From NCBI RefSeq assembly GCF_015706575.1, contig NW_024037060.1:1073983-1137982 (forward strand): DNA of 64,000 bases. Direction: 5' to 3'. Shown here piece by piece: positions 15,781-46,857 of the stretch. The DNA is from Patiria miniata. Taxonomy: Eukaryota. The notes under the pieces are model-generated. The model ran no database searches. It saw only the letters and a program-made list of their open reading frames with translations, and was not told where the DNA came from. The number at the start of each line of letters is the position of its first letter. Positions within the stretch are counted from its first letter, which is position 1. A program made the position numbers and the translations under genes.

Positions 15781-15782
15781 TT

Positions 15783-19214: not shown

Positions 19215-19906
19215 TTTTAATGTATAAGTGTTTAATAATTAGCCGATGACGTCATAATGATGTCATAAATGGCCCTTCCCATCATCCAATTTTTTGCATC
19301 CTACCTTTTTTTCGAAAACGTAAACAATGGAGATGCTTTGGTGTGAAAATGGTGCTTTTCTCCACCCGTGTCACGATTTTATCACCAAGGTACCTCACTT
19401 TTCCGCTTATCTTTGGAACACTAAACATTTAAGATACTAATAATCAATTACAAAAACTCTTTAAGCATAGAATTTGAGCCTTTCTCTCTGACTTCAAAAC
19501 AACATCTCACAATACCACATACTGTTTGCATGTTAAAACAAAGTGTCAAAGTGACTACCCAAAATCCATGATTTTAGCCCCAAAAAACGGTCTTTTGACC
19601 AAAAAGGTTTTTTTGACCCACAAAATCACCCTCAACTATATTCCATCCCAATGACATACCACTCAAATGAAAGATCTTGTTGTCCCCTTTAATTTGATAC
19701 CAAATTTGTTGTTGAGATGCTCGCAGTTCTGAAGATTATTATTAATTTATATTTTTTCATGTAATAATTAGCTGATGACGTCATAATGACGTCATACATG
19801 CCCTTTCCATCATTCAATTTTTTGCGTCCGTCTTTTTTTCGAAAAGGTATACCATGGAGATGCTTTGGTGAAAAAATGGTGCTTTTGTCCACTGTGTAAC
19901 GATCCT
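19215..19906. repeat. Right arm of the complex inverted repeat
   Basis: See the left arm. Confidence 0.6.
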
Positions 19907-20680: not shown

Positions 20681-21001
20681 CAAGGGCGGATCCAGAACAC
20701 AATTTTTTGTGGGGGGGGGGCCCAAAAAAAATTTGGTCCCCCAAAAAAGTGGGTCCAAAAAATTACGGCGTGGGGTTCGGGGCCCCGAACAATTTTTGGA
20801 TTCTAGATGCTCTGTGGTGCGATCTGAGGCAATTTCTGACCACTTTAACCAATTGTTTTTGAGGAAAAGATGGTGGTGCACTCATTGCCTGCCTTTATTG
20901 CGATGTCACATAAAACAAACAAAAATTGGTTTCGGTTTTTTTTTGGGGGGGGGGGCGATGGCCCCCTTTGGCCTCCCCTCCCCCTCCTGGATCCGCCCTT
21001 G
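20681..21001. mobile_element. MITE family A copy nested inside the hAT-like element
   Basis: CAAGGGCGGATCCAG...CTGGATCCGCCCTTG. Confidence 0.65.
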
Positions 21002-23353
21002 CACTATCTATACTACAATTCAAGGAATCTCTGTCTGTCTGTCCGTCTGTCTGTCTGTCTGTCTGTCCGCCGATTATCTCCAGAACTGGGCACCGTATGA
21101 AGTTGAAAATCGGCGGGTGTATTGCTCGGGACACCAGAATGTGCAGTGCCAAATTTGAAGGGGTTTGGAAGAGCGGTTGTCGAAAAAGCTGCAAAAAAGC
21201 AGCATTTTTTGAGACTCAACGTGGCAGAGTATAGCCTAGAACTCCACGCACTACTGTTCTTTTCAATTGTTTACGTCATGTTAAAGCTAAAGCGCGCGTG
21301 CTCAATATGACGCAAACAATGCAAAAAGGACGAGCACGCGCACGTGCATTGTAGGGCGATACCATTGTCCAGTATGGGTGAATAGCACTGCGTACCATAT
21401 GTTTCCGTACGTGATGACTGCACGGGCACATGCATTTTGCAGTCGATTGAACCACTATTGTAGGCGGTGGATTGAGCAACCTTACTCACGTAGGTGAGTA
21501 GCTGCACGGGCGTATTGGTGAATATCAGTGCCGGGGATGGCCTGGCGACATGTACAAAGTGCGCTCAACCTATGAGTGTGAGTTTAACATGTGAAAACAA
21601 CACAATTGAATCGTGTGCGTTGTTTGCATGATATGAGCATTTTGAAATTGCCCCTAACGAACAGGTGCATTTTTTTGACGGGCCCTGCAAAAATGACGGG
21701 CACATTGTAGGGAGATAAGCACTGCACACTATGTCTTCGTACGTACATATACGTGAGTAGCATGCACGGGCACATGCATTTTGTACTCAAATGAGCAACC
21801 ATCACTGCACTGTATGTGCCGGGGGGGGGGGGTGACGACATTTTGTGAGTTTAACTTGCGAGTGTGCTTTCACACCATTGAATAATGTGCGTTGTTTGCA
21901 CGAGCTGCAGTTCTCAACTGCCCCTTCCGAACACGCACATTTTCGACTGGCCCTGCACTAGTATTAACTAATGCACCCTTGTCACGGCTATTTCTTCTTT
22001 AGGGGGAGACCGTTCACATGTACATCACAATCCTTCTTTTTGCTAATGCAATTTGTTTTTTTACGGAATTTATTTTGGGGGGGCTAGACAAAATTTTTTG
22101 GGGGCTACAGCTCCCCCTAGCCCCCCCGTAGAACCGCGCCTGATTCAATATTTGTTTTTTTAACACTTCACCCACAGATTCTGCTTGATTTTAATATTTT
22201 AAATTATTTAAATCTGAACACAGTTGAAATTAACTTCAATTTCAATACAAAATTGGTGGAAAATGTATTTCTCTCTTAAAAACCACCCCTTCACGAAATG
22301 TTTGAACCGTAAGTCTGCGGCGCGCTCTCTTTGGAATAATGCGCGCTACGCACTACGCGCAACGCGCACACCAGCATGCATTTGCACACAAATACCGCGC
22401 CATGGAAATAGTACTTTGGTTGCTAATGGTATAGTACTTTGGTTGCTATGCGCATAGTACTTTTGGCCGTGCACAGAAAGATAGCAAAATTAGAAAGTAA
22501 CACGTGACTCGCTCTCGGCCAATCAAGACACAGAATCTGTGGGTGAGGTGTTATAATCCAAACAAGTACAAGTGCAGGCAGCACGTATACAGGCGCGGCT
22601 GTGTGAGTGTACGTGTACCGACGAAGTGTCAAAGTTTTCCGTCATTCAAATAGTTATACTCTTTCTGCACATTGAACTAAAATAACTGCTAAATGTGTTT
22701 TGTAACCAAAGCTTCGGCTCGTTACACCTACATGCAATTACTTGTGAAGGACGGTGGAATCGCAGGGCGGCCTCGGACTGGTTTTGTACACACTAGCTGA
22801 CTAGGCCTACGTACTGCTGCTGTTTAGCATGTTTAGATGATGTGCTATATTCTGTACGAATCTCGTGATCCGGCCATTCAACTTTTTTTAAGGCGATTGT
22901 GTAGGCCTAGGCGCAAGGCTACATGTATAGTTATTTCATCATAGTAGTACAGTGCAGTGTCCACCGGCCCCCTCTATCTTTTGGTCCTTAGGACGACTGT
23001 GCCAACATGCACGCCTAGCATGTCTGACTAAGCCTGACTTGCTATTGCGGCTTAATTTCCTTTCCTTAAATTGATCTTTGTTTTGTTCTAACCGGTTGTT
23101 TACATTTTAAAACTTTCTCCAATTCCTTCAGCTCAGTGACGTGCCATGCGTGTGTGGGTGGTAATCAGGTTATGAACTGCCCACATCTTTCAAGGGTCCT
23201 GCAAAAAGGATGTGGCAGGCTGCAGGCAGAGGCAGTCGCTATGTCTTAATTAAAGTCACCCTTGCTGCATCTGGTGCAGATACCAACAAATCCCACGCAG
23301 GTTGAGAGACCGCTAGTCACGACACTAGTTTGAATTGAACACATCAAGTAACC

Positions 23354-23591
23354 ATGGCAGAAACCGACGCCCTGTTGTTGACCAAATTCAATACTGTCAA
23401 TGGGGACCGTGACATCCTTAGTGCGGAGACCCCATCTCCTCTGACGAACAGCTTGAAGAATGAGAGGGGAAAGCCCATGGCAGAAGAACACGTGGTGTAC
23501 AAAAGAAGGTGGTTCATTCTGGCCGTCTTCTCGCTACTTTGTATGTTGCAAGCAGCAACGTGGAACACATGGGGTCCCATCTCCGACACAG
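23354..23591 (+). CDS. SLC49-family (DIRC2-like) paralog P2, exon 1/11
   Basis: aaccATGG; homolog of P1 exon 1 with an in-frame N-terminal indel (79 aa + phase-1 G); MAETDALLLTKFNTVNGDRDILSAE...WNTWGPISDT; GT donor at 23592. Confidence 0.8.
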
Positions 23592-23997
23592 GTTTGTCAC
23601 ACAATTTCACCAGTTTGTGCTGACAGGAGAGTTGTAACCAAGTCATTTTTGTCCTAGTCAAGTCAAGTCACAAGTCACATATTTTCAAGTCAAGTCAAGT
23701 CTCAAGTCATTTTTTCAAGAGTGAAGTTGTCTCAAGTCAAAAAAAGTAGCGACTTGAGTCCGACTCGAGTCCGAGTCAGTGACTCGAGTTAACAACACTG
23801 GCTGAAAGCGTTAGCAGAAAATGTCTGATCTTACCCAGTAACCGCAGAATCCTTCGTTACGGGATGTAAACATGTGTATAATCCAAAATTCCTCTCTAAC
23901 CTGTAAAAATAATTTGATTCCTTTTAATTCTAGGACCTACCTATAGATCTGGAATTATATTGTGTACATAATATCAGATTTTCGATTTACTTATAAG

Positions 23998-24363
23998 GCC
24001 CAAAAAAAAAAATATTCGGTCTCTGGTCAGACCAAATGTCTGCAATTGACGCGGCCACACGGCTTTTTTTTTTTTCTTCAAGCTTGGATTGTACAGACAA
24101 GGTGGGTACTATTTTGCTTTTTTGGTGTCCTCATGTACATTGGTGTCCTCCATAATTTGCCTTGGTGCTTTCGATCATTTGCCTTGGTGCAATTTCCCAT
24201 TCCTTGGTGCTCTTTGGTAAAAAAAATTGAGGAGGTGCGGAAATAGTGGGCGCCGTTTGGAGCTACCGCGGCGCGGAACATTTTGGAAAAAAAAAAGATC
24301 GATGCGCATGGTTAAAATCGACGTGCGCGCTGACCAGAGACCAACTTATTTTTTTTTTGGGCC
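23998..24363. mobile_element. 366-bp TIR element with GGCCC(A)11 termini inserted in P2 intron 1 (absent from P1)
   Basis: 5' GGCCCAAAAAAAAAAATATTCGGTCTCTGGTCAGACC, and the 3' end reverse-complemented gives GGCCCAAAAAAAAAATAAGTTGGTCTCTGGTCAGCGCG. 4-bp TSD TAAG; the P1 empty site is cttataagcttcattg. Confidence 0.65.
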
Positions 24364-24423
24364 TAAGCTCCATTGATAGTAAACCATGATTTTAAACCTA
24401 ATTCTTCATCATCTGATTTCTAG

Positions 24424-24534
24424 CCAAGGGTGTGTTGGACTGGACGGATGGTGACATAGCCCTGTTGGCCAACTGGGGTCCCATTACATTCGTAATCACC
24501 TGCTTTTTCTTTTCCTATCTACTTCTCATCAAAG
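24424..24534 (+). CDS. P2 exon 2/11
   Basis: 111 nt, AG/GT conserved; AKGVLDWTDGDIALLANWGPITFVITCFFFSYLLLIK. Confidence 0.8.
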
Positions 24535-24985
24535 GTAAGAAATTGTCACACAATGATCTCATGGTTTTCATGTTGTGTTTTGTGAAATTTGTTGTTTTTA
24601 TGAGAGCTACCTTGTGGGGTACTTGCACAAATGGAACAATGGTGCCGTATTTGTGTCTGCCGGTTGTTGTCTAACGGTGCCCAGAAGGGAAATTCTAAAG
24701 AAGAAGAATAAAAGTAGAACAATGCAAGACCCATAAGCCTCATCCATAAGGTTGGGTGTAGGTGCAGGGGAGGGGGGGGGGGGGTAGTTTGGGGCAGTAT
24801 AAGGTGTTAACATCCCTCCCTCCTAAAACAGACAAAATTTGAATGGAAAAAAAAACGCACTTCCCTATGAAAATAATTTTTAGAACACATGCTTTAAAGA
24901 CATTATATAGTGTTAACATGTTTTAAACTCACGGAAATAGTGCAAAATAATTCATCAGCTATCTGTTTCTTTTCGTGTCCTGCAG

Positions 24986-25076
24986 GTCTCAGGTTTTTCG
25001 TATTATGCAGTTCCTTGATCTTCCTATTGGGAGTCGCTATACGGTGCATTCCTGTCGGTGTAGAAAACGTGAAGTG
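24986..25076 (+). CDS. P2 exon 3/11
   Basis: 91 nt, ctgcag|GT...GTG|gtaaga; GLRFFVLCSSLIFLLGVAIRCIPVGVENVKW. Confidence 0.8.
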
Positions 25077-25344
25077 GTAAGAAAAATTACGAGGGCACAG
25101 ATTGATTAATTTTCTATTTTTTTTATGAGATGGAAATAGATTCTGTTTCGTCCGCGGGCTGCGAGAAACTAATCATTAGCTTACTTAGGTGGGACTTGAA
25201 CCCACAACCGCCTGGACTAGTGTTAGATGTCTCAACATGACTACCTTGTACATGTAGTACCGTATTCAAACCATGGAATATTCATTGTCACATTGTAAAT
25301 TGTCGTCTTCGATGATTAAATGTCTGTTTTGTGTTTTATCCAAG

Positions 25345-25545
25345 GACAATGAACGCTGGCCACGTTTTAATTGGCATAGCTAGTCCTGTTATGATGTCAG
25401 CACCAACTGAATTATCAGCGGTCTGGTTCCCGCCTCACCAACGGACTACGTCCACGGCCATTTCTTTGACCTCAGCATTTTTTGGCATGTCCATGTCGTT
25501 TCTGGTGGGGCCATTAGTGGTCACAAGTCTTCCGCAAAATGCAAG
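25345..25545 (+). CDS. P2 exon 4/11
   Basis: 201 nt; homolog of P1 exon 4 ([35 protein letters not shown]). Confidence 0.8.
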
Positions 25546-25818
25546 GTAGTAACCTTACCTATTTGGTTAGTTTCACGTTTAATCTTTTTTTAGAGCAACT
25601 GATCTTTGGAAAGAGAACTAACTGAAATCAATTGTCTCTTTCGACAATGGGAAAGAGGGTTTACTTTTGATAAATTGAAGAATTATGAATTGTCCCTTGT
25701 CAAAATGTTCCTCTTAATATCGCTAAGCTGTTACCAAATAATGTTTTTGTTGAATTAAAAAAAGACCCAAAAAAAGGCACTGTCACACTGCATTGTAAAA
25801 GTGAATATTTGGTTTCAG

Positions 25819-25892
25819 TTCACATGCAGAATCCATAGACCCAAAGGAGAAAGCACTGTACTTCAATGAGATAATGAAGTTAATGTATATAG
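25819..25892 (+). CDS. P2 exon 5/11
   Basis: 74 nt; SSHAESIDPKEKALYFNEIMKLMYI. Confidence 0.75.
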
Positions 25893-26436
25893 GTATGTAC
25901 AAACTGTTGTCTTTCAAAAAAGTTACAGGGCTTAATGTTTTGGTCGTAGTAAAACTTCAGTTAAGGCAAACAGAATGTTGCCTGTAACAAAGGTCTAACT
26001 GTATTCCAGTAAGTAAGCAGTCTGCAGCAATTTAGTCTTTTAAATATTCGTTGTCAGATTTGATTCAAAAAAGGAAGGCTTCGGGATTTGTTTTTAATTT
26101 TATTGAAGTTGATAAAAAAAATCCATGAAAAACTTCTCTGAAAAATCATTTGACTGTTGAACCCACTGCTGTTCTGGATTTAAACCAGCCGGGAAACCAA
26201 ACCAACCAAGGTGGTCGAGTGATTAAGCATGATTGTGCTTTTAACCAAAATGTTGTTGGCTCAAGTCCCACCTGAGCAAGCTGGAGGCTTTTATTTTCTG
26301 ACCAGTTGCCAGACAGCGTTTAGTGTATATAAATTGCTGCGAGTGCCTATTAAATTACATTGGGGAAGGGTGAAACCTAATATAAACAATAGATATTACA
26401 CACATTTGTATTATTTGTTTTCATTTGATGTTTCAG

Positions 26437-26566
26437 AATGTGGAGCTGTGGCCGTCGTGGTCATCGCGGCTCTATTGTACTTCCCTGAGAAGCCACCAAC
26501 CTCACCCAGCTTATCTGCCACCAAACCTCGGGAAAGCTTCAAAGATGGAGCCCTGAAGATGATCAA
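26437..26566 (+). CDS. P2 exon 6/11
   Basis: 130 nt; ECGAVAVVVIAALLYFPEKPPTSPSLSATKPRESFKDGALKMI. Confidence 0.8.
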
Positions 26567-26711
26567 GTTAGTCTTTAGAAAACTTCATTTTCAATTTTTT
26601 AAGAAACATGCTTTAATTCAATCAAGTGTCAACACGTATTAATCATAATCCTTAACTCTGAAACAGCTAAAGATTAAAAGAGTCCCATTTTTGTTGAATA
26701 TTTGATTAAAG

Positions 26712-26823
26712 GAGCACCAATTTTTGGATTCCTGCGGCAGCCTACAGCATATCATCTGGAGTTTATGTTGGCTGGACCACGCAAATGGACACAATTTTCA
26801 AGAATACTCTGAATATAGGACAG
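26712..26823 (+). CDS. P2 exon 7/11
   Basis: 112 nt; KSTNFWIPAAAYSISSGVYVGWTTQMDTIFKNTLNIGQ. Confidence 0.7.
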
Positions 26824-27001
26824 GTAACAATCACAGTATTTAAAATTATTGATAATCGCTGAAAGTTTTGTTTAGTACAAGTGCGGCACTGTCCAATATG
26901 CTATGCTATGCTATGTCTCTGTTGAGTTGTGCTTAGCTGTGTTGTGTGATTTAGCCATGTTAGTGGATGAATTTCTAATATTTGGGTGGTTTTTTTTTCA
27001 G

Positions 27002-27069
27002 GACACTGTTGGTTGGATTGGATTCATCTCCAATATTGCCGGGATGCTGGGAGGCTTGATAGTTGCAAG
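27002..27069 (+). CDS. P2 exon 8/11
   Basis: 68 nt; DTVGWIGFISNIAGMLGGLIVA. Confidence 0.8.
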
Positions 27070-27647
27070 GTGAGTGGTGCAACAGTGTCACAAAAGTTTC
27101 ACTTCAGTAGAAAAAATTGCTCCTCGTTTAAGCTTTGGTCCCAATTGAGGATCAAGGAGGGCGCTGGGGGGGGGGGGGGGGGGGGGGGCGGGCTTAGTCC
27201 CCTTAAACTCTCCAGTAAGGTTAAAAAGTCTGGATCTTAAGCTCAGAATTTTTGTAGTTTACAGGTATATGCCTGGGTTGGTCTACCTTTCCACTCCCCA
27301 TTTTATAAAATGTACCAGTCCATTGACCTGTGTGGTTAGATTAGGTGGGTGATAAGGCATACAGGATCACCAGGTCAGTGCCACGCTCACGTAGCTGGTC
27401 ACACAGGGTGAAAGTTTTCCATATGGTGGGTGAAAAATCCTTGAAAAAATCATGCATTCAGATGCTGATCTGGATCACTTCCAAATGAAATGATTCGTAC
27501 TTGTACCAAGGACCACCCCTAAATGAGTGACGGCAGGAGTATGCCATCGAATAGTAAGACAATTCTTATTTGGCAATGCGTTTGACAAATTCCAGTCTTC
27601 ACTCTTGTTAACCATTTTATCTCTCCTTCTTTGTGTGACTTCACCAG

Positions 27648-27766
27648 ACTTGTAGACATCCTAGGCGGTAGGATGAAGGCAGTATTGATTTCACTCACCC
27701 TGGCAGCCTTCGTTAGCTGTGTATGGTGTGTCCTACTCTCAATGAAGTATATCTCATACAGTTTAG
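27648..27766 (+). CDS. P2 exon 9/11
   Basis: 119 nt; RLVDILGGRMKAVLISLTLAAFVSCVWCVLLSMKYISYSL. Confidence 0.8.
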
Positions 27767-28139
27767 GTGAGTAACGTGAGATAGTGTCGAAAAAAATGTA
27801 ATGCGCACATTTATTTTTTATGTGAGTCGTGTGGGCTTCAACTTCAAGTTGAGATTATCTGAAAGATTGTGAAATTGAAGCAGATACGGGCAAATTTCTA
27901 ACAGAGGTACAGAGTTTCGAAATTTTCAGGTTGTTTTATTTATCTTAAAAAGCTTCATAAGAAAATGTGAACACCCCTAATGAAAAAAAAACTGAAAAAT
28001 GACAGTCACCCAGGTTTTACAAATGTTTTAAGCTTATACCAGACATACATTGCAAGTGTTTTCAATGTTTATTTTTGGGAATTGTTTATTGGACATTCAC
28101 CTATATTTGATTCTGTGATTTGTTTCTCTTTGGTTGCAG

Positions 28140-28322
28140 TGAGCGTCTATATTGCATGTATCTTCATTGGACTTTTCATCAACGCCTCCTTCCCCATATA
28201 CTTTGAGATCACGGTCGAGGGCATGTATCCTGTCTCGGAAGGCAACATAACAATGGTGATGGCATTCCTGACCAATGTGGTTTCTGTGATATTCCTGTTG
28301 CTGCCGATGATTCCAAATCTAA
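28140..28322 (+). CDS. P2 exon 10/11
   Basis: 183 nt; ...EITVEGMYPVSEGNITMVMAFLTNVVSVIFLLLPMIPNL. Confidence 0.75.
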
Positions 28323-28499
28323 GTAAGTTCAAAATTCTGAAATAACTGAGGCTGCTACCACCGTCACAATGGACTCAGTGCGCAAACAAGAGAGGGCGCT
28401 TTTTCTACCACTTTTGAGAGCCATGTGGACGGGAGACATCATGTGCCCGTTCTGGTTCATGCACCTGCAGCATGAAGGAGGCATGACTAGTTTTATTTT

Positions 28500-28713
28500 C
28501 AGGGGGCGATCCAGAACACAATTTTTTTGGGGGGGGGGGGCCAAAAAAATGTTGGTCCCCAAAAAGTGGGTCCAAGAATATAACTGCGTGGGTTTTGGGG
28601 TCCGCTTAAGGGCCCCCCAAATTTTTTTTGGATTCTAGTGGTGTGATCTGTGGTGCGATCTGAGGCAATTTTCTGACCACTTTGACCCAATTTTGACCCT
28701 GGATCTGCCCTTG
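28500..28713. mobile_element. MITE family A copy (P2 intron 10, internally deleted)
   Basis: CAGGGGGCGATCCAG...CTGGATCTGCCCTTG. Confidence 0.6.
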
Positions 28714-29005
28714 TTTATTTTGAATATGCATATAGCAATGTCATCTCGCATGAGCGTCAGGCGTCGGAAATGTATTGGAATGTCTCTCCCAGTGGTCTCC
28801 CCCAACTCTGCCCTTCTTACCGTTGAGGGGGTACTTGTGCACAGAGCCCATAGACTCGCCCATTATGCCCTGCCCAATTTTGTTTCAACCAATCACAGCC
28901 TTGAAGTCTAGCAACAAGTCCAATAAGTCCTCAGCAAATTTTTGTGCTGAGTAGCTGTATGAAATTGTGTTGGTCATTGATATTTTCCTCTTTGTTCGCC
29001 ATCAG

Positions 29006-29136
29006 GTGTGATTTGGATGAACTGGTTCCTTCTAGGTTCAGTCTTTGTGTGCTTGCCTCTCCTCATGATGTTTAAAGAGCATTATAATCGTCTGGATGAA
29101 GATATGACGGAAGTATCCAGAGAGGATAACAAATGA
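29006..29136 (+). CDS. P2 exon 11/11 (TGA 29134-29136)
   Basis: 131 nt; SVIWMNWFLLGSVFVCLPLLMMFKEHYNRLDEDMTEVSREDNK*. Total CDS 1458 nt, 485 aa. Confidence 0.75.
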
Positions 29137-30561
29137 TATTGTCCTCTTCTAGGGCTAATTTCATATTTGAGTATTCTAACTTGGACTTGATTGAATATTC
29201 AAATATATGAAATGCACCGATCAAAATTAACTGGCACTTGAATTATCATGTTTTTAATTCATAATTTTCTCTCATTAACTAAGTTATGAACTTGCCAATG
29301 AGACGTTGCACACAAATCTTCTGACAGTATTAAGGTTAAGTTTGAATTGGAGTGACCTGCTCCCAAGTTTTGACAGTATTTCTTCTATATCCCCCTGGAC
29401 TGTGTAGAGTACTAAGTGTAATACAGCATTATTACATTTAAAAAGTACAGTTTTCTCCCCACAGTAAGTGGGTATGTGGAAGACTGCCGTACTAATTTTG
29501 AAACTCATAATTTGCTTGTATTCCCACATCTTCTAAACCAAGAAGTATTTAGGGCATTATTTCATTTAATTGTTTATTTTGATAATTATTCACCGAAGTA
29601 AAATTAATTTTGTTTTAAAATCAACTAACTTGTAATTAATAGAATGTTTTGAAGCGTTAGGGTTGTAATAGAAAAACGGTGCAAGACATGACTTTTGATG
29701 GAATGCTTGCCTCAGAGAGACATTGCTTGAACACCTGTGCAAGTTTGTTGTATTGTTATCTCACCTGCTCATGGAAACCACTGAATATATAATGAGTAAA
29801 TAACAAAGATATTTAAACTTACAAGATATTTGCACAACGAAAGTGTTATTAATATTAACATGTAACATGTATCACTCAGGTCACCTGTAAAGTGAATATA
29901 ATAATTACATAATGTACATAGGTCTACATATTAATATTGCAGGGAATATTAACTTTTAATGAGGCTTCATCAATGCTATTGCATTTCCAATAATATTAAG
30001 AGGTGTTAAAGGCAGTGCTTATGTATCGAAGGTGGTTCATTCTTAAATTTTACACATTTATACAAACTTTTTATAATTTTTTTTCCAGCAATGTACATTG
30101 ATAAAGATGATACTCGTTTTTCATGTATATAATGCTTGAAATTATAAATGCTGGCATTTCTACCATGACTGTAAATTTAATTGGTATTTTTTTAAATTTA
30201 AAACAAATCGTCGACTTTTATCCAATTTCTTGTCACTCCAATCATGATTGCTGCCTTATGCCATTGAATTTAAACTAAACTTTTTTTCTAGACGGTTTGA
30301 CGCAAGTCTTGTAAATACGGGTAAAATGTTGGTTGTTTTTGTTAGAAGATTATTTGAGTGATGATTAATTGTATTTCCTTTTGTAGTACGTATATGTTGC
30401 AATTATGGTGAAACTTCAAACCGATTGTTGCACTAAAAACATTTGTTATAAAAATATCAATAGAAACCAAGTCTTTCACATACTGCCATGCTTTATTTAA
30501 ATGTCAGTTATTTTAAGGATAGTCATAAATTAACATGAAATCATATGGTGGGCAGAAAAGT

Positions 30562-31803
30562 ACGAAAGCCCATTAGCGCCACTGCAAGTATATATGTTGC
30601 GGAATATTTAATTCGTTATTATGGATTATTAATTCGTTATTACGGATTACTAATTCGTTATAACGGATTATTTAATTCGTTATTACGGATTATTAATTCG
30701 TTATTACGGATTATTAATTCGTTATTACGGATTATTAATTCGTTATTACGGATTATTAATTCGTTATAACGGATTATTTAATTCGTTATTACCGATTATT
30801 AATTCGTTATTACGGATTATTAATTCGTTATTACGGATTATTAATTCGTTATAACGGATTATTAATTCGTTATTACGGATTATTTAATTCGTTATTACGG
30901 ATTACTAATTCGTTATAACGGATTATTTAATTCGTTATTACGGATTATTAATTCGTTATTACGGATTATTAATTCGTTATGGATTATTAATTCGTTATAA
31001 CGGATTATTAATTCGTTATTACGGATTATTTAATTCGTTATTACGGATTACTAATTCGTTATAACGGATTATTTAATTCGTTATTACGGATTACTAATTC
31101 GTTATAACGGATTATTTAATTCGTTATTACGGATTATTAATTCGTTATTATGGATTACTAATTCGTTATTACGGATTATTTAATTCGTTATTACGGATTA
31201 TTAATTCGTTATTACGGATTATTAATTCGTTATTACGAATTACTCATACGTTCCGAGTCATTACTCGGCAAGTATGGCACAGGGTGCAAACGTTGTATGC
31301 AAAGATAGCGCCGCCTAGCGGCGCTATATACACAGGCCCCTGGTCACGTGCTCTCCAAGTGTGAGAACATCAGACCTAATTCGTAATAACGAATTAATAA
31401 TCCGTAATAACGAATTAAATAATCCGTAATAACGAATTAGTAATCCGTAATAACGAATAAGTAATCCGTAATAACGAATTAATAATCCGTAATAACAAAT
31501 TAGTAATCCGTAATAACGAATTAATAATCCGTAATAACGAATTAATAATCCGTAATAACGAATTAAATAATCGGTTATAACGAATTAATAATCCGTAATA
31601 ACCAATTAGTAATCCGTAATAACGAATTAATAATCCGTAATAACGAATTAATCATCCGTAATAACGAATTAATAATCCGTAATAAAGAATTAAATAATCC
31701 GTTATAACGAATTAATAATCCGTAATAACGAATTAATAATCCGTAATAACGAATTACATAATCTGTAACATATATACTTGCAGTGGCGCTAATGGGCTTT
31801 CGT
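30562..31803. mobile_element. Foldback-type element: long TIRs built from 23/24-bp tandem repeats around a 125-bp unique core; 8-bp TSD AGAAAAGT
   Basis: Termini ACGAAAGCCCATTAGCGCCACTGCAAGTATATATGTT / AACATATATACTTGCAGTGGCGCTAATGGGCTTTCGT. Arrays of TTATTAATTCGTTATTACGGAT-like units run 30602-31250 and, inverted, 31376-31770. TSD at 30554-30561 and 31804-31811. Uninterrupted empty sites ggtgggcagaaaagtgat occur at 11360, 41461 and 51548. Confidence 0.8.
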
Positions 31804-33074
31804 AGAAAAGTGATTGTACTTTATTATTGTGTCAATAACTTGACATAAACCTATCGGTGTTTTTTTGTAATTGCCAGAGAAAAAAAAGGGAAATATCAAG
31901 ATTCCATTCAAGTGTGTGGACTAACAGCCATTTTTGAATCGTAGTAATAATTTAATATTTATAACATTTTTAAAACACCTTACAGTGCCTTGATACACAT
32001 TTTTCTTAATTTGTGCTTGGGAATTAAATCGATAAATCTCGAATAACAACTTCAACAGTAGCTGCATTTTCAACGCACTGTCTTAAGATTAAGAATCTTA
32101 CGATTAACCACAACGGTACTAATTAAATACTAATTAAAGTTTGCATTGTTTGCAATCAACACATAGTTTGAACGTACTAAATTCTGGGGGAAAATGATGT
32201 ATTCAATGTCTGCGTAAATATATTTTCACAAATCTTGAAAACATATTGATATCAATTAAAATTTAGGTTGCACAACACGGTTCTTGGAAGATTTAGTAAT
32301 TGTAAACACATTATAGTTACTCTCTTTAACAACTTCGATTTTGTTTTTTTTATAATAGAATTCATGTTTTCAATTAAAATAAAACCAACATTTTCTATTT
32401 TTCGACGACTGCAACCCTCCGATTTGTTTTTCTTTTTGACTTTGGGTAGCGCTCTTCTTAACGTACACAAAAAAAAATCCGGATGAATTATTGTCAATCG
32501 CAAAAAATCGAAATTTGTAAAGTAATTATTCCATAACACTACACGTCAACTTGACATATTTTCGTTTGATGTCTCATTTAAAAGTAAATAACTTTTGCAT
32601 TTCCAGGAAAAAAAGCTAGCTCGTGCTAGTCTTTTTTACCTGCCAGCATCCGGGGTGCGTTACGTGTCCGGATGGTCCGGGTATAGGCGCGTGGGACTTG
32701 ACTAAAGGCTAATCGAGTGCTTGCGTGTAGTACTATACTACTATACTCGAGTTGTACAACACTGCTAATTTTTGGCAACCACTTGACATTGAGCAATCTC
32801 ACCCATTTAATAATGGGATGGTCCAACTAGCACGGTGAACTAAAATAAACTGCTAAATGTGTTTTGTTACCAAAGCTTCGGCAAATACAATATCTTATTA
32901 TTACAATTACATGCAATTACTTGTGAAGGACGGTGGAATCGCAGGGCGGCCTCGGACTGGTTTTGTACACACGGTAGGCTTACGTACTGCTGTTTGGCAT
33001 GTTTAGATGATGTGCAGTGTACGAATCTCGTGATAATCCGGCCATTCAACTTTTTTCAAGGCGATTGTGTACAA

Positions 33075-34442: not shown

Positions 34443-34713
34443 ATGGCAGAAACCGACGCCCTGTTGTCGTACGTAGCACCCAAGCATTCACACCCAAGCT
34501 TGACCAAATACGATACTGTCAATGGGGACCGTGACATCCTTAGTGCGGAGACCCCATCTCCTCTGACGAACAGCTTGAAGAATGAGAGGGGAAAGCCCAT
34601 GACAGGAGAACACGTGGTGTACAAAGCAAGGTGGTTCATTCTGGCCGTCTTCTCGCTACTTTGTATGTTGCAAGCAGCAGCGTCGAACGCATGGGGTCCC
34701 ATCGCAGACACAG
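34443..34713 (+). CDS. SLC49-family (DIRC2-like) paralog P3, exon 1/11
   Basis: aaccATGG; 90 aa + phase-1 G; MAETDALLSYVAPKHSHPSLTKYDTVNGDRDILSAE...RWFILAVFSLLCMLQAAASNAWGPIADT; GT at 34714. Confidence 0.8.
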
Positions 34714-35187
34714 GTTTGTCACACAATTTCACCAGTTTGTGCTGACAGGAGAGTTGTAACCAAGTCATTTTTGTCCTAGTCCAGTCAAGTCACAAGCCAT
34801 ATATTTTCAAGTCAAGTCTCAAGTCATTTTTTCCCAAGTAAAGTCAAGTCTCAAGTCAAAAAAGTAGCGACTTGAGTCCGACTCGAGTCCGAGTCAGCGA
34901 CTCGAGTTAACAACACTGGCTGACAGCGTTGGCAGAAAATGTCTGATCTAACCCAGTAACCGCAGAATCCTTCGTTACGGGATGTAAACATGTGCATAAT
35001 CCAAAATTCCTCTCTGACCCGTAAAAATAATTTGATTCCTTTTAATTCTAGGACCTACCTATAGATCTGGAATTATAATTTATATTTTGTACATAATATC
35101 AGATTTTCAATGTACATACTTATAATATAAGCTCCATTGATTGTAATGCATGATTTTAAACCTAATTCTTCATCATCTGATTTCTAG

Positions 35188-35298
35188 CCAAGGTTGTGTT
35201 GGACTGGACGGATGGTGACATAGCCCTGTTGGCCAACTGGGGTCCCATTACATTCGTAATCACCAGCTTTTTCTTTTCCTATCTACTTCTCATCAAAG
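35188..35298 (+). CDS. P3 exon 2/11
   Basis: 111 nt; AKVVLDWTDGDIALLANWGPITFVITSFFFSYLLLIK. Confidence 0.8.
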
Positions 35299-35745
35299 GT
35301 AAGAAATTGTCACACAATGATCTCATGGTTTTCATGTTGTGTTTTGTGAAATTTGTTTTTTTTTGAGAGCTACCTTGTGGGGTACTTGCACAAATGGAAC
35401 AATGGTGCCGTATTTGTGTCTGCCGGTTGTTGTCTAACGGTGCCCAGAAGGGAAATTCTAAAGAAGAAGAATAAGAGTAGAACAATGCAAGACCCATAAG
35501 CCTCATCTATAAGGTTGGGTGTAGGTGCAGGGGAGGGGGGGGGGTAGTTTGGGGCAGTATAAGGTGTTAACATCCCTCCCTCTTAAAACAGACAAAATTT
35601 GAATGGAAAAAAAAACGCACTTCCCTTTGAAAATAATTTTTAGAACACATGCTTTAAAGACATTAAATAGTGTTAACATGTTTTAAACTCACGGAAATAG
35701 TGCAAAATAATTCATCAGCTATCTGTTTCTTTTCGTGTCCTGCAG

Positions 35746-35836
35746 GTTTCAGGTTTTTCGTATTATGCAGTTCCTTGATCTTCCTATTGGGAGTCGCTAT
35801 ACGGTGCATTCCTGTCGGTGTAGAAAACGTGAAGTG
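35746..35836 (+). CDS. P3 exon 3/11
   Basis: 91 nt; GFRFFVLCSSLIFLLGVAIRCIPVGVENVKW. Confidence 0.8.
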
Positions 35837-36048
35837 GTAAGAAAAATTACGAAGGCACAGATTGATTAATTTTCTATTTTGTCTTATTAGCTTACTTAGG
35901 TGGGACTTGAACCCAGGACCTCCTGGACTAGTGCAGATGTCTCAACATGACTACGTTGTAGTACCATATTCAAACCATGGAATATTCATTGTCACATTGT
36001 AAATTGTCGTCTTCGATGATTAAATGTCTGTTTTGTGTTTTATCCAAG

Positions 36049-36249
36049 GACAATGAACGCTGGCCACGTTTTAATTGGCATAGCTGGTCCCGTTATGATG
36101 TCAGCACCAACTGAATTATCAGCGGTCTGGTTCCCGCCTCACCAACGGACTACGTCCACGGCCATTTCTATGACCTCAGCATTTTTTGGCATGTCCATGT
36201 CGTTTCTGGTGGGGCCATTAGTGGTCACAAGTCTTCCGCAAAATGCAAG
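36049..36249 (+). CDS. P3 exon 4/11
   Basis: 201 nt; homolog of P1 exon 4. Confidence 0.8.
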
Positions 36250-36509
36250 GTAGTAACCTTACCTATTTGGTTAGTTTCACGTTTGTTCTTGTTTTAGAGC
36301 AACTGATCTTTGGGAAGAGAACTAATTGAAATCAATTGTCTCTTTGCGACAATGGAAAAGAAGGTTTACTTTTGGTAAATTGAAGAATTATGAATTGTCA
36401 AAATGTTGTTCTTAAAAATATCGCTAAGCTGTTACCAAATAATGTTTTTCTTGAATTAACAAAAGAAAAAAAAAAATATTGCATTGTAACAGTGAATATT
36501 TGGTTTCAG

Positions 36510-36583
36510 TTCACATGCAGAATCCATAGACCCAAAGGAGAAAGCACTGTACTTCAATGAGATAATGAAGTTAATGTATATAG
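36510..36583 (+). CDS. P3 exon 5/11
   Basis: 74 nt; SSHAESIDPKEKALYFNEIMKLMYI. Confidence 0.75.
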
Positions 36584-37137
36584 GTATGTACAAACTATTG
36601 TCTTTCCAAAAAGTTACAGGGCTTAATGTTTTGGTCGTAGTAAAACTTCAGTTAAGGCAAACAGAATGTTGCCTGTAACAAAGGTCTAACTGTATTCCAC
36701 GTCACTCTAGTCAATAAGCAGTCTCCAACAATTTAGTCTTTTAAATATTCGTTGTCAGATTTGATTCCAAAAAGGGAGGCTTCGGGATTTGTTTTTAATT
36801 TTATTGAAGTTGAAAAAAAAAAACCATAAAAGACTTCCCTGAAAAGTCTTTTGACTGTTGAACCCACTGCTGTTCCGGATTTAAACCAGCCGGGCAACCT
36901 AACCAACCAAGGTGGTCGAGTGATTAAACATGATTGCGCTTTTAACCAAAATGTTGTTGGCTCAAGTCCCACCTGAACAAGCTTGAGGCTTTTATTTTCT
37001 GACTAGTTGCCAGACAGCGTTTAGTGTATATAAATTGCTGCGAGTGCCTATTAAATTACATTGGGGAAGGGTGAAACCTAATATAAACAATAGATATTAC
37101 ACACATTTGTATTATTTGTTTTCATTTGATGTTTCAG

Positions 37138-37267
37138 AATGTGGAGCTGTGGCCGTCGTGGTCATCGCGGCTCTATTGTACTTCCCTGAGAAGCCACCAA
37201 CCTCACCCAGCTTATCTGCCACCAAACCTCGGGAAAGCTTCAAAGATGGAGCCCTGAAGATGATCAA
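37138..37267 (+). CDS. P3 exon 6/11
   Basis: 130 nt; homolog of P1 exon 6. Confidence 0.8.
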
Positions 37268-37437
37268 GTTAGTCTTTAGACAACTGTCCAAAAATTGGAA
37301 GAAGAAAACTTAATTTTCAATTTTTTAAGAAACATGCTTTAATTCAATCAAGTGTCAACACGTATTAATCATAATCCTTAACTCTGAAACAGCTAAAGAT
37401 TAAAAGAGTCCCATTTTTGTTGAATATTTGGTTGAAG

Positions 37438-37549
37438 GAGCACCCATTTTTGGATTCCTGCGGCAGCCTACAGCATATCATCTGGAGTTTACGGTGGCTG
37501 GACCACGCAAATGGACACAATTTTCAAGACTACTCTGAATATAGGACAG
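37438..37549 (+). CDS. P3 exon 7/11
   Basis: 112 nt; KSTHFWIPAAAYSISSGVYGGWTTQMDTIFKTTLNIGQ. Confidence 0.7.
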
Positions 37550-37719
37550 GTAACAATCACAATATTCAAAATTATTTATAATTGCTGAAAGTTTTGTTTA
37601 GTACAAGTGCGGCACTGTCCAATATGCTATGCTAGTCTCTGTTGAGTTGTGCTTAGCTGTGTTGTGTGATTTAGCCATGTTAGCAGATGAATTTCTAATA
37701 TTTGGGTCATTTTTTTCAG

Positions 37720-37787
37720 GACACTGTTGGTTGGATTGGATTCATCTCCAATATTGCCGGGATGCTGGGAGGCTTGATAGTTGCAAG
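37720..37787 (+). CDS. P3 exon 8/11
   Basis: 68 nt; DTVGWIGFISNIAGMLGGLIVA. Confidence 0.8.
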
Positions 37788-38164
37788 GTGAGTGGTGCAA
37801 CAGTGTCACAAAAGTTTCACTTCAGTAGAAAAAATTGCTCCTCGTTGAGCTTTGGTCCCAATGGAGGATCAGGAGGGCGCTGGGGGGGGGGGGGGGCTTA
37901 GTCCCCTTAAACTCTCCAGTAAGGTGAAACAGTCTGGATCTTAAGCTCAGACATTTTGTAGTTTACATGTATGTGCCTGGGTTGGTCTACCTTTCCACTC
38001 CCCATTTTATAAAATGTACCAGTCCATTGACCTGTGTGGTTATATTAGGTGAGTGATAAGGCATACAGGATCACCAGGTCAGTGCCACGCTCACGTAGCT
38101 GGTCACACAGGGTGAAAGTTTTCCATTGAAAAAATCATGCATTCAGATGCTGATCTGGATCACT

Positions 38165-38400
38165 TCCAAATTATTTGGGGGGGGGGGCAAAAAAATGTTG
38201 GTCCCCAAAAAGTGGGTCCAAGAATATAACTCTGTGGGTTTTGGGGACCGCTTAAGGGACCGCCAAATTTTTTTTTTGATTCTAGTGGTGTGATCTGTGG
38301 TGCGATCTGAGGCAATTTTCTGACCACTTTGACCCAATTTTTTTGAGGAAAAGATGGTGGTGTACGCAGTGCCTGCCTTAATGACCCCCCCCCCGTACCA
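38165..38400. repeat. Internal fragment of MITE family A without TIRs (P3 intron 8)
   Basis: Matches the MITE-A core (GTGGGTCCAAGAATATAACT...GCGATCTGAGGCAATTTTCTGACCACTTTGACCC) but lacks both termini. Confidence 0.5.
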
Positions 38401-38539
38401 AGGACCACCCCTAAATGAGTGACGGCAGGAGTATGCCATCGAATAGTAAGACAATTCTTATTTGGCAATGCGTTTGACAAATTGCAGTCTTCACTCTTGT
38501 TAAATATTTTATCTCTCCTTGTTTTTGTGACTTCACCAG

Positions 38540-38658
38540 ACTTGTAGACATCCTAGGCGGTAGGATGAAGGCAGTATTGATTTCACTCACCATGGCAGCC
38601 TTCGTTAGCTGTGTATGGTATGTCCTACTCTCAATGAAGTATATCTCATATAGTTTAG
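38540..38658 (+). CDS. P3 exon 9/11
   Basis: 119 nt; RLVDILGGRMKAVLISLTMAAFVSCVWYVLLSMKYISYSL. Confidence 0.8.
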
Positions 38659-39032
38659 GTGAGTAACATGAGAAAGTGTCGAAAAAAATGTAATGCGCAC
38701 ATTTATTTTTATGTGTGTTGTTTGGGCTTCAACTTCAAGTTGAGATTATCTGAAAGATTGTGAAATTGAAGCAGATACGGGCAAATTTCTAACAGGGGTG
38801 CAGAGTTTCGAAAATTTTCAGGTTGTTTTATTTATCTTAAAAAGCTTCATAAGAAAATGTGAACACCCCTAATAAAAAAAAAATGAAATATGACAGTCAC
38901 CCAGGTTTTACAAATGTTTTAAGCTTATACCAGACAAACATTGCAAGTGTTTTCAATGTTTATTTTTGGGAATTGTTTATTGGACATTCACCTATATTTG
39001 ATTCTGTGATATGTGTTTCTCTTTGGTTACAG

Positions 39033-39215
39033 TGAGCGTCTACATTGCATGTATCTTCTTTGGACTTTTCATCAATGCCTCCTTCCCCATATACTTTGAG
39101 ATCACGGTCGAGGGCATGTATCCTGTCTCAGAAGGCAACATAACAATGGTGATGACATTCGTGACCAATGTGGTTTCTGTGATATTCCTGTTGCCGCCGA
39201 TGATTCCAAATCTAA
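39033..39215 (+). CDS. P3 exon 10/11
   Basis: 183 nt; ...EITVEGMYPVSEGNITMVMTFVTNVVSVIFLLPPMIPNL. Confidence 0.75.
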
Positions 39216-39392
39216 GTAAGTTCAAAATTCTGAAATAACTGAGGCTGCTACCACCGTCACAATGGACTCAGTGTGCAAACAAGAGAGGGCGCTTTTTCTA
39301 CCACTTTTGAGAGCCATGTGGACGGGAGACATCATGTGCCCGTTCTGGTTCATGCACCTGCAGCATGAAGGAGGCATGACTAGTTTTATTTT

Positions 39393-39670
39393 CAGGGGGT
39401 GAGCCAGAACACAATTTTTTTTGGGGGGGGGGCCAAAAAAATGTTGGTCCTCAAAAAGTGGGTCCAAGAATATAACTGCGTGGGTTTTGGGGTCCGCTTA
39501 AGGGCCCCCCCCCAAAAATTTTTTTTTTTGATTCTAGTGGTGTGATCTGTGGTGCGATCTGAGGCAATTTTCTGACCACTTTGACCCAATTTTTTTGAGG
39601 AAAAAATGGTGCTGTACGCAGTGCCTGCCTTTATGACCCCCATTGCCCCCCCCCCCTGGATCTGCCCTTG
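39393..39670. mobile_element. MITE family A copy (P3 intron 10)
   Basis: CAGGGGGTGAGCCAG...CTGGATCTGCCCTTG. Confidence 0.6.
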
Positions 39671-39943
39671 TTTATTTTGAATATGCATATAGCCATGTCA
39701 TCTCTCATGAGCCTCGGGCGTCTCTCCCAGTGGTCTCCCCCAACTCTGCCCTTCTTACCGTTGAGGGGGTACTTGTGCACAGAGCCCGTAGACTCGCCCA
39801 TTATGCCCTGCCCAATTTTGTTTCAACCAATCACAGCCTTGAAGTCTAGCAACAAGTCCAATAAGTGCTCAGCAAATTTTTGTGCTGAGTAGCTGTATGA
39901 AATTGTGTTGGTCATTGATATTTTCCTCCACGTTCGCCATCAG

Positions 39944-40068
39944 GTGTGATTTGGATGAACTGGCTCCTTCTAGGTTCAGTCTTTGTGTGCTTGCCTCTCC
40001 TCATGATGTATAAAGAGCATTATAATCGTCTGGATGAAGATATGACGGAAAGTATCCAGAGAGGATAA
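39944..40068 (+). CDS. P3 exon 11/11 (TAA 40066-40068)
   Basis: 125 nt; an extra A (GGAAAGT) relative to P1/P2 shifts the tail to ...EDMTESIQRG*. Total CDS 1485 nt, 494 aa. Confidence 0.75.
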
Positions 40069-41518
40069 CAAATGATATTGTCCTCTTCTAGGGCTAATTT
40101 CATATTTGATTATTCTAACTTGGACTTGATTGAATATTCAAATATATGAAATGCACCGATCAAAATTAACTGGCACTTGAATTATCATGTTTTTAATTCA
40201 TAATTTTCTCTCATTAACTAAGTTATGAACTTGCCAATGAGACGTTGCACACAAATCTTCAGACAGTATTAAGGTTAAGTTTGAATTGGAGTGACTTGCT
40301 CCAAGTTTTGACAGTTCTATATCCCCCTGGACTGTGTAGAGTACTAAGTGTAATACAGCATTATTACATTTAAAAAGTACAGTTTTTCCCCACAATAAGT
40401 GGGTATGTGGAAGACTGACGTACTAATTTTGAAACTCGTATTTGCTTGTATTCCCACATACTTCTCAACCAAGAAGTATTGAGGGCATTATTTCATTTAA
40501 TTGTTTATTTTTATAATTATTCACCGAAGTAAAATTAATTTTGTTTTAAAATCAACTAACTTGTAATTAATAGAATGTTTTGAAGCGTTAGGGTTGTAAA
40601 AGGAAAACGGTGCAAGACATGACTTTGACGGAATGCTTGCTTTAGAGAGACATAGATTGTAATTTTGCTTGAACACCTCTGCAAGTTTGTTGTATTGTTA
40701 TCTCACCAGCTCATGGAAAGCACTGAATATATAGTGAGTAAATAACAAAGATATTTAAACTTACAAGATATTTGCACAACGAAAGTGTTATTAATATTAA
40801 CATGCAACAAGTATCACTCAGGTCACCTGTAAAGTGAATAATTACATAATGTACATAGGTCTACATATTAATATTACAGGCAATGTTAACTTTTAATGAG
40901 GCTTCATCAATGCTATTGCATTTCCAATAATATTAAGAGGTGTTAAAGGCAGTGCTTATGTATCGAAGGTGGTTCGTTCTTAAATTTATACAAACTTAAA
41001 AAAAAAAAATTTCAACAATGTACATTGATAAAGATGATACTCGTTTTTCGTGTGTATAATGCTTGAAATTAGAAATGCTGGCATTTCTACCATGACTGTA
41101 AATTTGATTGGTATATTTTTTTAATTCAAAACAAATAGTCGACTTTTATCCAATTTCTCGTCACTCCAATCATGATTGATGCCTTATGCCGTTGAATTAA
41201 ACTTAACTTTTTTCTAGACGGTTTGACACAACTCTTGTAAATATGGGTAAAATGTTGGTGGTTTTTGTTAGAAGATTATTTGAGTGATGATTAATTGTAT
41301 TTCCTTTTGTAGTACGTATATGTGGCAATTATGGTGAAACTTCAAACCGATTGTTGCACTAAAACATTTTATAAAAATTTAATAGAAACCAAGTCTTTCA
41401 CATACTGCCATGCTTTATTTAAATGTCAGTTATTTTAAGGATAGTCATAAATTAACATGCGGTGGGCAGAAAAGTGATATTGTACTTTATTATTATATCA
41501 CAAATTTGACATAAGCCT

Positions 41519-44633: not shown

Positions 44634-44897
44634 ATGGCAGAAACCGACACCTGTTGTCGAGTGTAGCATCCAAGGATTCACACCCAAGCTTGACCAAATA
44701 CGATACTGTCAATGGGGACATTCTAAGTGCGGAGACCCCATCTCCTGTGACGAACAGCTTGAAGAATGAGAGGGGAAAGCCCATGGCAGGAGAACACGTG
44801 GTGTACAAAAGAAGGTGGTTCATTCTGGCCGTCTTCTCGCTACTTTGTATGTTGCAAGCAGCAACGTGGAACACATGGGGTCCCATCGCAGACACAG
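44634..44897 (+). pseudogene. P4 exon 1, disrupted: canonical ATG 44634 followed by a 1-bp deletion and in-frame TAG (codon 11)
   Basis: gacgccctgttgtcg changed to gacacctgttgtcg; exon is 264 nt versus 265 in P1; downstream homology (SKDSHPSLTKYDTVNGDILSAE...WNTWGPIADT) continues in the +1 frame. The next in-frame Met is at ...GKPMAGEH... just before TM1. Confidence 0.55.
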
Positions 44898-45377
44898 GTT
44901 TGTCACACAATTTCACCAGTTTGTGCTGACAGGAGAGTTGTAACCAAGTCATTTTTGTCCTAGTCAAGTCAAAAGTCACAAGTCATATATTTTCAAGTCA
45001 AGTCAAGTCTCAAGTCATTTTTTCCAGAGTGAAGTCGTCTCAAGTCAAAAAAAGTAGCGACTTGAGTCCGACTCGAGTCCGAGTCAGCGACTCGAGTCAA
45101 CAACACTGGCTGACAGCGTTAGCAGAAAATGTCTGATCTAACCCAGTAACCGCAGAATCCTTCGTTACGGGATGTAAACATGTGCATAATCCAAAATTCC
45201 TCTCTAACCCGTAAAAATAATTTGATTCCTTTTAATTCTAGGACCTACCTATAGGTCTGGAATTATAATTTATATTTTGTACATAATATCAGATTTTCAG
45301 TGTACATACTTATAATAAAAGCTCCATTGATTGTAATGCATGATTTTAAACCTAATTCTTCATCATCTGATTTCTAG

Positions 45378-45488
45378 CCAAGGGTGTGTTAGACTGGACG
45401 GATGGTGACATAGCCCTGTTGGCCAACTGGGGTCCCATTACATTCGTAATCACCGGCTTTTTCTTTTCCTATCTACTTCTCATCAAAG
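45378..45488 (+). CDS. P4 exon 2/11 (gene possibly pseudogenic or N-truncated)
   Basis: 111 nt; AKGVLDWTDGDIALLANWGPITFVITGFFFSYLLLIK; AG/GT intact. Confidence 0.55.
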
Positions 45489-45940: not shown

Positions 45941-46031
45941 GTCTCAGGTTTTGCGTATTATGCAGTTCCTTGATCTTCCTAATGGGAGTCGCTATACGGT
46001 GCATTCCTGTCGGTGTAGAAAACGTGAAGTG
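45941..46031 (+). CDS. P4 exon 3/11
   Basis: 91 nt; GLRFCVLCSSLIFLMGVAIRCIPVGVENVKW. Confidence 0.55.
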
Positions 46032-46783: not shown

Positions 46784-46857
46784 TTCAAATGCAGAATCCA
46801 TAGACCCAAAGGAGAAAGCACTGTACTTCAATGAGATAATGAAGTTAATGTATATAG
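46784..46857 (+). CDS. P4 exon 5/11
   Basis: 74 nt. Confidence 0.55.

Follow-up and report, generated by a model that had tools for sequence, protein, structure and literature searches.

A block of A+T-rich DNA with sharp borders, at approximately 30562-31803, interrupts the sequence when positions 30300-32100 of a 64-kb stretch of Patiria miniata DNA (hereafter the window) are read. The block raises two questions, namely, whether it is a mobile element and, if so, which kind of transposase would have moved it. The initial annotation had described it as a classic Foldback transposon with a verified 8-bp target-site duplication (TSD), a name that refers to a shape and leaves the enzyme to be found.

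An insertion in a tandem array of transporter genes

Self-comparison of the window revealed a tandem array of ~10.5-kb units. A single-exon protein query for the neighboring gene gave no match, and a concatenated exon model retrieved SLC49A4/DIRC2-like MFS transporters, with the best matches coming from Patiria miniata. Four such genes lie in tandem on the forward strand (2150-9800, 23354-29133, 34443-40065, and 44651-50129), and a diverged, inverted fifth gene lies on the reverse strand (60161-53181). About 420 of the first 454 residues of the RefSeq protein P0001 fall in exons that are 100% identical to unit 3. The last 40 residues of this protein, by contrast, match the last exon of unit 4 at 100% identity and unit 3 at only ~90%, a mixture suggestive of a chimeric gene model or of a haplotype or assembly difference.

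The block occupies the spacer between genes 2 and 3, 1428 bp past the last coding exon of the former and 2639 bp ahead of the latter. Three paralogous spacers, 87-93% identical to the occupied one, carry the empty site GGGCAGAAAAGTGA in single copy (at 11364, 41464, and 51551) and, within it, a single GAAAAG on the forward strand (11369-11374 in repeat unit 1, 41469-41474 in unit 3, and 51556-51561 in unit 4). When positions 30561-31804 are excised and the remainder is aligned with these three sites, exactly one extra GAAAAG is left over. Nothing comparable to the inserted sequence, with its 39-bp ends and its 134-bp core, is found in the paralogous spacers or in the rest of the window. Since the paralogous sites are empty, the block is the insertion of a mobile DNA transposon, and the initial annotation was right to delimit a discrete insertion at ~30562-31803. 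Because the three other spacers keep an undisturbed site at 87-93% identity, the insertion took place later than the gene duplications. In addition, the intact duplication, the match of the termini at 38 of 39 positions, and the absence of the element from such similar paralogous spacers indicate that the insertion is young.

Architecture of the element

The whole element (30561-31804) is 1244 bp long, has a G+C content of 28%, and reads 5'-TACGAAAG...CTTTCGTA-3'. It contains no open reading frame (ORF) longer than 74 aa, and this sea star copy is non-coding and non-autonomous. Rfam and tRNA scans found no RNA genes in the window. The 37-bp termini (ACGAAAGCCCATTAGCGCCACTGCAAGTATATATGTT) are perfect inverted copies of each other, located at 30562-30598 on the forward strand and at 31767-31803 on the reverse strand, and they are the only two matches in the window, where none is expected by chance. 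With up to 3 mismatches allowed, neither this terminus nor the 21-bp unit described below has another copy in the 64 kb. The inverted repeat reaches one base further outward on each side, thereby including T30561 and A31804. The left unique terminus (30561-30599, forward strand, 39 bp) is complementary at 38 of 39 positions to the right one (31766-31804, reverse strand), which ends in ...CATATATACTTGCAGTGGCGCTAATGGGCTTTCGTA.

Inside the termini, both arms consist of tandem arrays. In the left arm (30600-31242, forward strand), Tandem Repeats Finder detected 30.3 copies of a period of 21 (score 1065) with the consensus AATTCGTTATTACGGATTATT, and parsing resolved 30 units, 20 of which are 21 bp long and 8 of which are 22 bp long, the other 2 being irregular. 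In the right arm (31377-31768, reverse strand), the same program detected 18.5 copies of the same period (score 650), corresponding to 18-19 inverted units, with a consensus that is the reverse complement of the left one. These values replace the earlier estimates of a 23/24-bp unit, in fact 21 bp with a 22-bp variant, and of about 27 left and 17 right units; likewise, the core measures 134 bp (31243-31376) rather than 125 bp. The claim that the arms are inverted arrays has held up, given that their global alignment shows 97% identity over the aligned columns, with gaps that are multiples of whole units. Counted from the outer end, the two arms have a common register in which the third unit is a 22-bp ATAACGG...TTTA variant, and the innermost unit of each arm is the variant ...CGAATTA. 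Taken with the whole-unit gaps, the common register and the innermost variant indicate that the arms were once symmetrical and later changed length through slippage or unequal exchange.

With lengths of 682 and 428 bp, the arms make up 1110 of the 1244 bp (89%) of the element. As such, it displays the long, internally tandem-repetitive inverted arms and the short middle that characterize the foldback-like structural class, and the architectural half of the earlier description stands. Folded in silico as single-stranded DNA, the whole element is predicted to form one long hairpin (-494.7 kcal/mol), in keeping with the palindrome that had been proposed for structure prediction.

The element contains ~48 copies of the 21-bp unit, which is itself quasi-palindromic (CGGATTA-T-TAATTCG). 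Nearly every unit includes GGATTA (= TAATCC), present in 43 exact copies within 1.2 kb (30600-31768). This hexamer corresponds to the core recognition sequence of K50 homeodomain proteins (Otx, for example), and binding of host factors to the array units would be pure speculation.

The unique middle domain has a G+C content of 54% and matches neither the rest of the window nor the related loci described below. It holds a perfect palindrome with a 10-bp stem (ATAGCGCCGC-CTA-GCGGCGCTAT, 31305-31327) and a second, smaller one (CCGAGT-CATT-ACTCGG, 31253-31268). On one strand, the larger palindrome loosely resembles a CTCF-type motif. Similarity between terminus and core is not significant, as 84 of 500 shuffles reach the observed score.

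Relatives in an ENA metagenome assembly and their transposase

The unit length of 21 bp, being divisible by 3, leaves the array open in some reading frames (IRYYGLL / SLLRIIN), and relatives were sought using the 68-aa translation across the left end of the element as a protein query. The search returned one 65-aa ORF (P0110) on a 58-kb contig, L002, of the ENA metagenome assembly ERZ26222911. Cluster look-ups of the genes neighboring this ORF added three further contigs of the same assembly (L003, L004, and L005), which are collinear copies of 91-99% identity. In that assembly, the four contigs bear the names ctg1007616, ctg678089, ctg587608, and ctg937681.

The L002 contig carries the unit ACGGATTACTAATCCGTTATT in five copies at 10023-10127 and in twenty inverted copies at 18353-18774. 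The ENA unit (AATCCGTTATTACGGATTACT) is identical to the sea star consensus at 19 of 21 positions and differs from it at 2. After the right array, L002 continues with ATATATACTTAGAGTGGCACTAATGGTCTT, which matches the sea star right terminus ATATATACTTGCAGTGGCGCTAATGGGCTT; its left arm is truncated, and the last 5 bp of its right tip are absent. The left end of the family is intact in L003, where ...AAAACT directly precedes TACGAAAGACGATTAGTGCCACTCTAAGTATATAT and 8 units follow. This terminus is identical to that of the sea star element over 30 of 35 bp and is also preceded by T. Beyond it, L003 is collinear with L002 10020-16475 at 91-97% identity. The right end is intact in L004, which is collinear with L002 12274-15901 (97-99% identity) and then runs through microsatellites and the right array to ...GGTCTTTTGTA, directly followed by CATTAG, so that the base after the terminus is A. 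The L004 contig represents a copy from which the transposase has been deleted, and L005 is a further truncated copy without arms. The ends of the relatives thus read T before ACGAAAG (L003) and CTTTTGT before A (L004), and a T on the left or an A on the right borders the terminus at all four intact ends (two in the sea star element, one in L003, and one in L004). No single contig spans both ends of an ENA copy, and no TSD was therefore read in this family. A further contig, L006, was considered as an empty allele and rejected, as it has only a 340-bp repeat in common with the L004 flank.

Exact-pattern scans with a 25-nt double unit and with termini of 19-22 nt found nothing in viral contigs or prokaryotic genomes. 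Their sole match among metagenome contigs (L001) was rejected as a chance match in a G+C-rich prokaryotic contig.

On the reverse strand of L002, between its two arms, a gene starts 44 bp inside the right array and comprises two exons (18309-17463 and 16986-16661) with GT/AG borders. The initial annotation had pointed to the cores of long copies as the place where a transposase might be found, and the spliced product of this gene is indeed a 390-aa DDE transposase of the IS3EU type. Pfam PF24764 ("Integrase core domain") is the only domain matched in this protein (E 2e-27); no MULE domain is present, and the spliced product matches PF24764 better than does exon 1 alone. A PDB sequence search and NCBIfam gave no match. 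To classify the protein, we compared it by BLASTP with the labeled transposase cores in Data S3 of Kojima & Bao 2023 (PMC10045372). All 15 IS3EU/GingerRoot references matched at E ≤ 4e-9, the core being 64% identical to IS3EU-1_CGi (E 3e-52), 60% to IS3EU-2_SK, 57% to both IS3EU-1_DR and IS3EU-1_TC, and 54% to the coral GingerRoot AD_GR-003, and the references from Ginger1, Ginger2, Polinton, Gypsy/Ty3, IS3, IS2, IS407, IS911, and IS51 all gave E > 0.04. In addition, almost every residue of the signature WHIDSYDKLKP...GCIDGFSR...D.GTEN...NQRIE.WW is common to the L002 protein and the IS3EU/GingerRoot cores. The 64-kb P. miniata window itself contains no IS3EU transposase.

The long copies (L002 12196-14073, L003 4425-6307, and L004 1-2021) also contain a conserved 625-aa ORF that runs in the opposite orientation to the transposase. 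This ORF has a weak C-terminal HECT match (E 1e-6) and may be a passenger or accessory gene of the ENA IS3EU family.

Other features distinguish the ENA copies from one another. A 13-copy array of a 44-bp sequence in L003 (2830-3403) is single-copy in L002, and (AAAAC)n and (CAGACC)n runs occupy the site of the transposase deletion in L004 (3747-4363); internal satellite growth therefore differentiates copies of the long element. Some right-array units of L002 (18580-18760) are flipped (...AATTCGTTATTACGG... among ...CCGTAATAACGG...), as expected if quasi-palindromic units undergo local inversion or hairpin-templated repair. Motifs of the form ATAGCGCC(A/C)CC, similar to the sea star core palindrome, also occur inside L002 at ~10398 and ~10935.

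The comparison of termini and units shows, at the level of sequence similarity, that the sea star element is homologous to the ENA family, in which a long copy carries the gene for an IS3EU transposase. The 134-bp sea star core bears no similarity to the ENA long copies, and because the cores are unrelated, simple internal deletion from the long family does not account for the element. Since the period and 19 of 21 bases of the unit have been kept across two families with unrelated cores, constraint on the 21-bp unit is suggested.

Probable assignment to IS3EU/GingerRoot and its consequences

In the published phylogeny, a single lineage with a bootstrap support of 99% unites IS3EU and GingerRoot, both of which lack an HHCC finger (PMC10045372), and elements of this superfamily have TA..TA termini and 6-bp TSDs (PMC10045372, PMC6839031, PMC12730594). 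GingerRoot elements, known from fish, corals, and other animals, combine a 6-bp TSD and mostly TA..TA ends with terminal inverted repeats (TIRs) of 100-150 bp (PMC6839031). Fungal IS3EU elements have TAYGG..CCRTA ends, 6-bp TSDs, and TIRs longer than 30 bp, and their passenger genes run in the direction opposite to that of the transposase (PMC12730594).

With this in mind, we re-examined the borders of the sea star insertion, which can be parsed in two ways. In the 8-bp parse, GGGC is followed by AGAAAAGT, the element (ACGAAAG...CTTTCGT), a second AGAAAAGT, and GAT. In the 6-bp parse, GGGCA is followed by GAAAAG, the element (TACGAAAG...CTTTCGTA), a second GAAAAG, and TGAT. The two copies of GAAAAG lie on the forward strand at 30555-30560 (within AGAAAAGT at 30554-30561 in the 8-bp reading) and at 31805-31810. 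The size of the duplication is ambiguous because the inverted repeat includes T30561 and A31804, and the three empty sites, compared with one P. miniata copy, fit both parses equally. The previously verified 8-bp TSD is thus real insofar as AGAAAAGT is found on both sides, and is not unique, as TA...TA termini (TA at 30561-30562 and at 31803-31804) with a 6-bp GAAAAG fit equally well. We prefer the latter since it fits both the enzyme of the relatives and the TA..TA ends that define the family, and we infer that the duplication is GAAAAG, 6 bp rather than 8 bp.

Altogether, these results make it likely that the sea star element is a young, non-autonomous IS3EU/GingerRoot transposon with foldback-like architecture. 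Like members of that superfamily, it has terminal inverted repeats and TA..TA ends, and one of the two readings of its duplication is 6 bp; its ENA relatives have a transposase core that is 54-64% identical to the closest reference cores, and their long copies carry a second gene in the opposite orientation, like multi-gene IS3EU elements. Its ends read TACGA..TCGTA, comparable to TAYGG..CCRTA in fungi. The sea star copy encodes nothing, and in contrast to the short TIRs of published IS3EU/GingerRoot elements, its long arms are almost entirely made of 21-bp tandem units. We found no description of a foldback-like IS3EU element in the literature searched.

The reading closest to the initial annotation, in which a Foldback-type element with a true 8-bp TSD (AGAAAAGT) was moved by a transposase of an 8-bp superfamily (hAT, P, Merlin, or MULE/Phantom), is in our view rather unlikely. 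An 8-bp direct repeat does flank ACGAAAG...CTTTCGT, with one copy in the empty sites, and most described foldback elements have been placed in Mutator, with TSDs of 8-10 bp (PMC4079207, PMC3169594). However, the T and the A are readable as ends of the sea star element, T...A also borders the termini of two independent relatives, and the enzyme of the relatives is IS3EU, not MULE, hAT, or P. The hAT superfamily has 8-bp TSDs, short TIRs, the end motif YARNG, and the target pattern nTnnnnAn, and the ends of P elements start with CA. Ends of ACGAA or TACGA fit neither YARNG nor a CA start, and the target AGAAAAGT does not fit nTnnnnAn. Both hAT and P were rejected on these ends and on the transposase of the relatives. 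A Mutator/Phantom foldback was rejected as well, the duplication being 6 bp, or 8 bp at most, versus 8-10 bp (typically 9 bp) and the relatives' enzyme being IS3EU. The Foldback label consequently survives for the shape, and the identity that it implied does not.

It is somewhat less probable again that the IS3EU link is coincidental, such that the transposase and the HECT-like gene form a separate element, or captured DNA, within the foldback arms of another superfamily, and the sea star element would be left unassigned. Only L002, a copy damaged at both ends, shows the transposase gene adjoining the right array, and unrelated sequences are known to occupy the middle of foldback elements. Nevertheless, no other inverted repeats bracket the transposase gene or the HECT region of L002, collinearity extends through the internal region and the arms in the three other copies, the ends are of the TAYG type as in published IS3EU, and TA..TA with a 6-bp TSD independently fits the sea star insertion. 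As for a non-mobile origin, by which a local minisatellite became palindromic through replication template switching or a long-read foldback chimera entered the assembly, it retains almost no probability. Homologous termini and units lie beside a transposase in the DNA of another organism, an exact short target duplication bounds the insertion, and the ends and core lack any counterpart in the spacers and window; although such processes can generate long palindromes and the two arms differ in length, this explanation is already effectively refuted.

If the element belongs to IS3EU/GingerRoot, an autonomous copy at another genomic location would provide an IS3EU-type DDE transposase in trans. 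This enzyme would have an integrase/RNase-H fold and an N-terminal helix-turn-helix region without an HHCC zinc finger, and it would recognize the TACGAAAG... ends and probably the 21-bp subterminal units as well. It would then excise the element and integrate it with 6-bp staggered cuts, the repair of which would produce the GAAAAG duplication. Slippage and unequal exchange may subsequently have expanded and contracted the unit arrays, giving 30 versus 18-19 units. By analogy, the 21-bp units would most likely be reiterated transposase-binding sites, a putative role that has also been proposed for the Galileo repeats, as quoted in PMC4079207.

The foldback shape is known from several superfamilies, with FB, Tetris, and Tm1 belonging to Mutator/Phantom and Galileo to P (PMC4079207, PMC3169594). 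The sea star element resembles Drosophila FB, Tetris, nematode Tm1, and Galileo in its long inverted arms of tandem subrepeats with strong hairpin potential, its short unique tip domains, its small non-coding middle, and its unequal arms. In those elements, too, the tandem units are thought to be extra transposase-binding sites (PMC4079207). It differs from them in its TA..TA ends, in the integrase-like IS3EU DDE enzyme found in its relatives, and in a duplication best read as 6 bp, versus 7-10 bp in FB, Tetris, Tm1, and Galileo. It also has features of a MITE, namely, a small size, a lack of coding sequence, TIRs and a TSD at its borders, and presumed mobilization in trans; however, its length of 1.24 kb exceeds that of typical MITEs, and tandem arrays take the place of simple TIRs in its arms. 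The TU foldback elements of sea urchins, described by Liebermann et al. in 1983, reportedly have long inverted repeats with short tandem repeats in their outer domains, a 15-bp repeat unit, and an 8-bp duplication. To our knowledge, TU has not been assigned to a superfamily. Set beside TU by description only, the sea star element is similar in its echinoderm host and in having inverted repeats with tandem outer domains, and dissimilar in its 21-bp, as opposed to 15-bp, unit.

These findings suggest that the foldback shape, known from Mutator and P, also evolved among integrase-like cut-and-paste transposons. A more far-reaching idea, which we put forward tentatively and regard as possible rather than probable, is that Foldback architecture arose independently in IS3EU/GingerRoot too, with the 21-bp unit serving as a conserved transposase-binding module common to the sea star and a marine organism. 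If this is true, a unit 19/21 identical in both hosts would point to long-term constraint or horizontal transfer and, by extension, historically unassigned echinoderm foldbacks such as sea urchin TU could join IS3EU/GingerRoot. With this assignment, an unclassified "foldback" gains a place in a named, little-studied superfamily; IS3EU/GingerRoot is known and includes non-autonomous families, and the element does not amount to a genetic system of a new kind. The locus also illustrates how a flanking T...A can disguise a 6-bp duplication as an 8-bp one. For the host, tandem genes interrupted by a 1.2-kb near-perfect palindrome are likely to be prone to replication stalling, deletion, and mis-assembly at that point, and the presence or absence of the insertion is a useful marker with which to date the duplications of SLC49A4 in Patiria.

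Two other repeats were observed in the window. Inverted repeats of 382 bp and 88.5% identity (12533-12914 and 19387-19760) bracket ~6.5 kb within the 12.0-22.5-kb segment that breaks up the tandem gene array, and the pair may mark either an inverted duplication or another TIR element, larger than the first. The other repeat, which is short, occurs in multiple copies scattered over ~6650-7020, 15766-16190, 20709-21158, 27100-27350, 28330-28640, and 58300-58800; it contains poly-G/poly-C tracts, yields spurious ORFs such as FFLGGGG...PPPPPP, and is probably a SINE- or MITE-like family.
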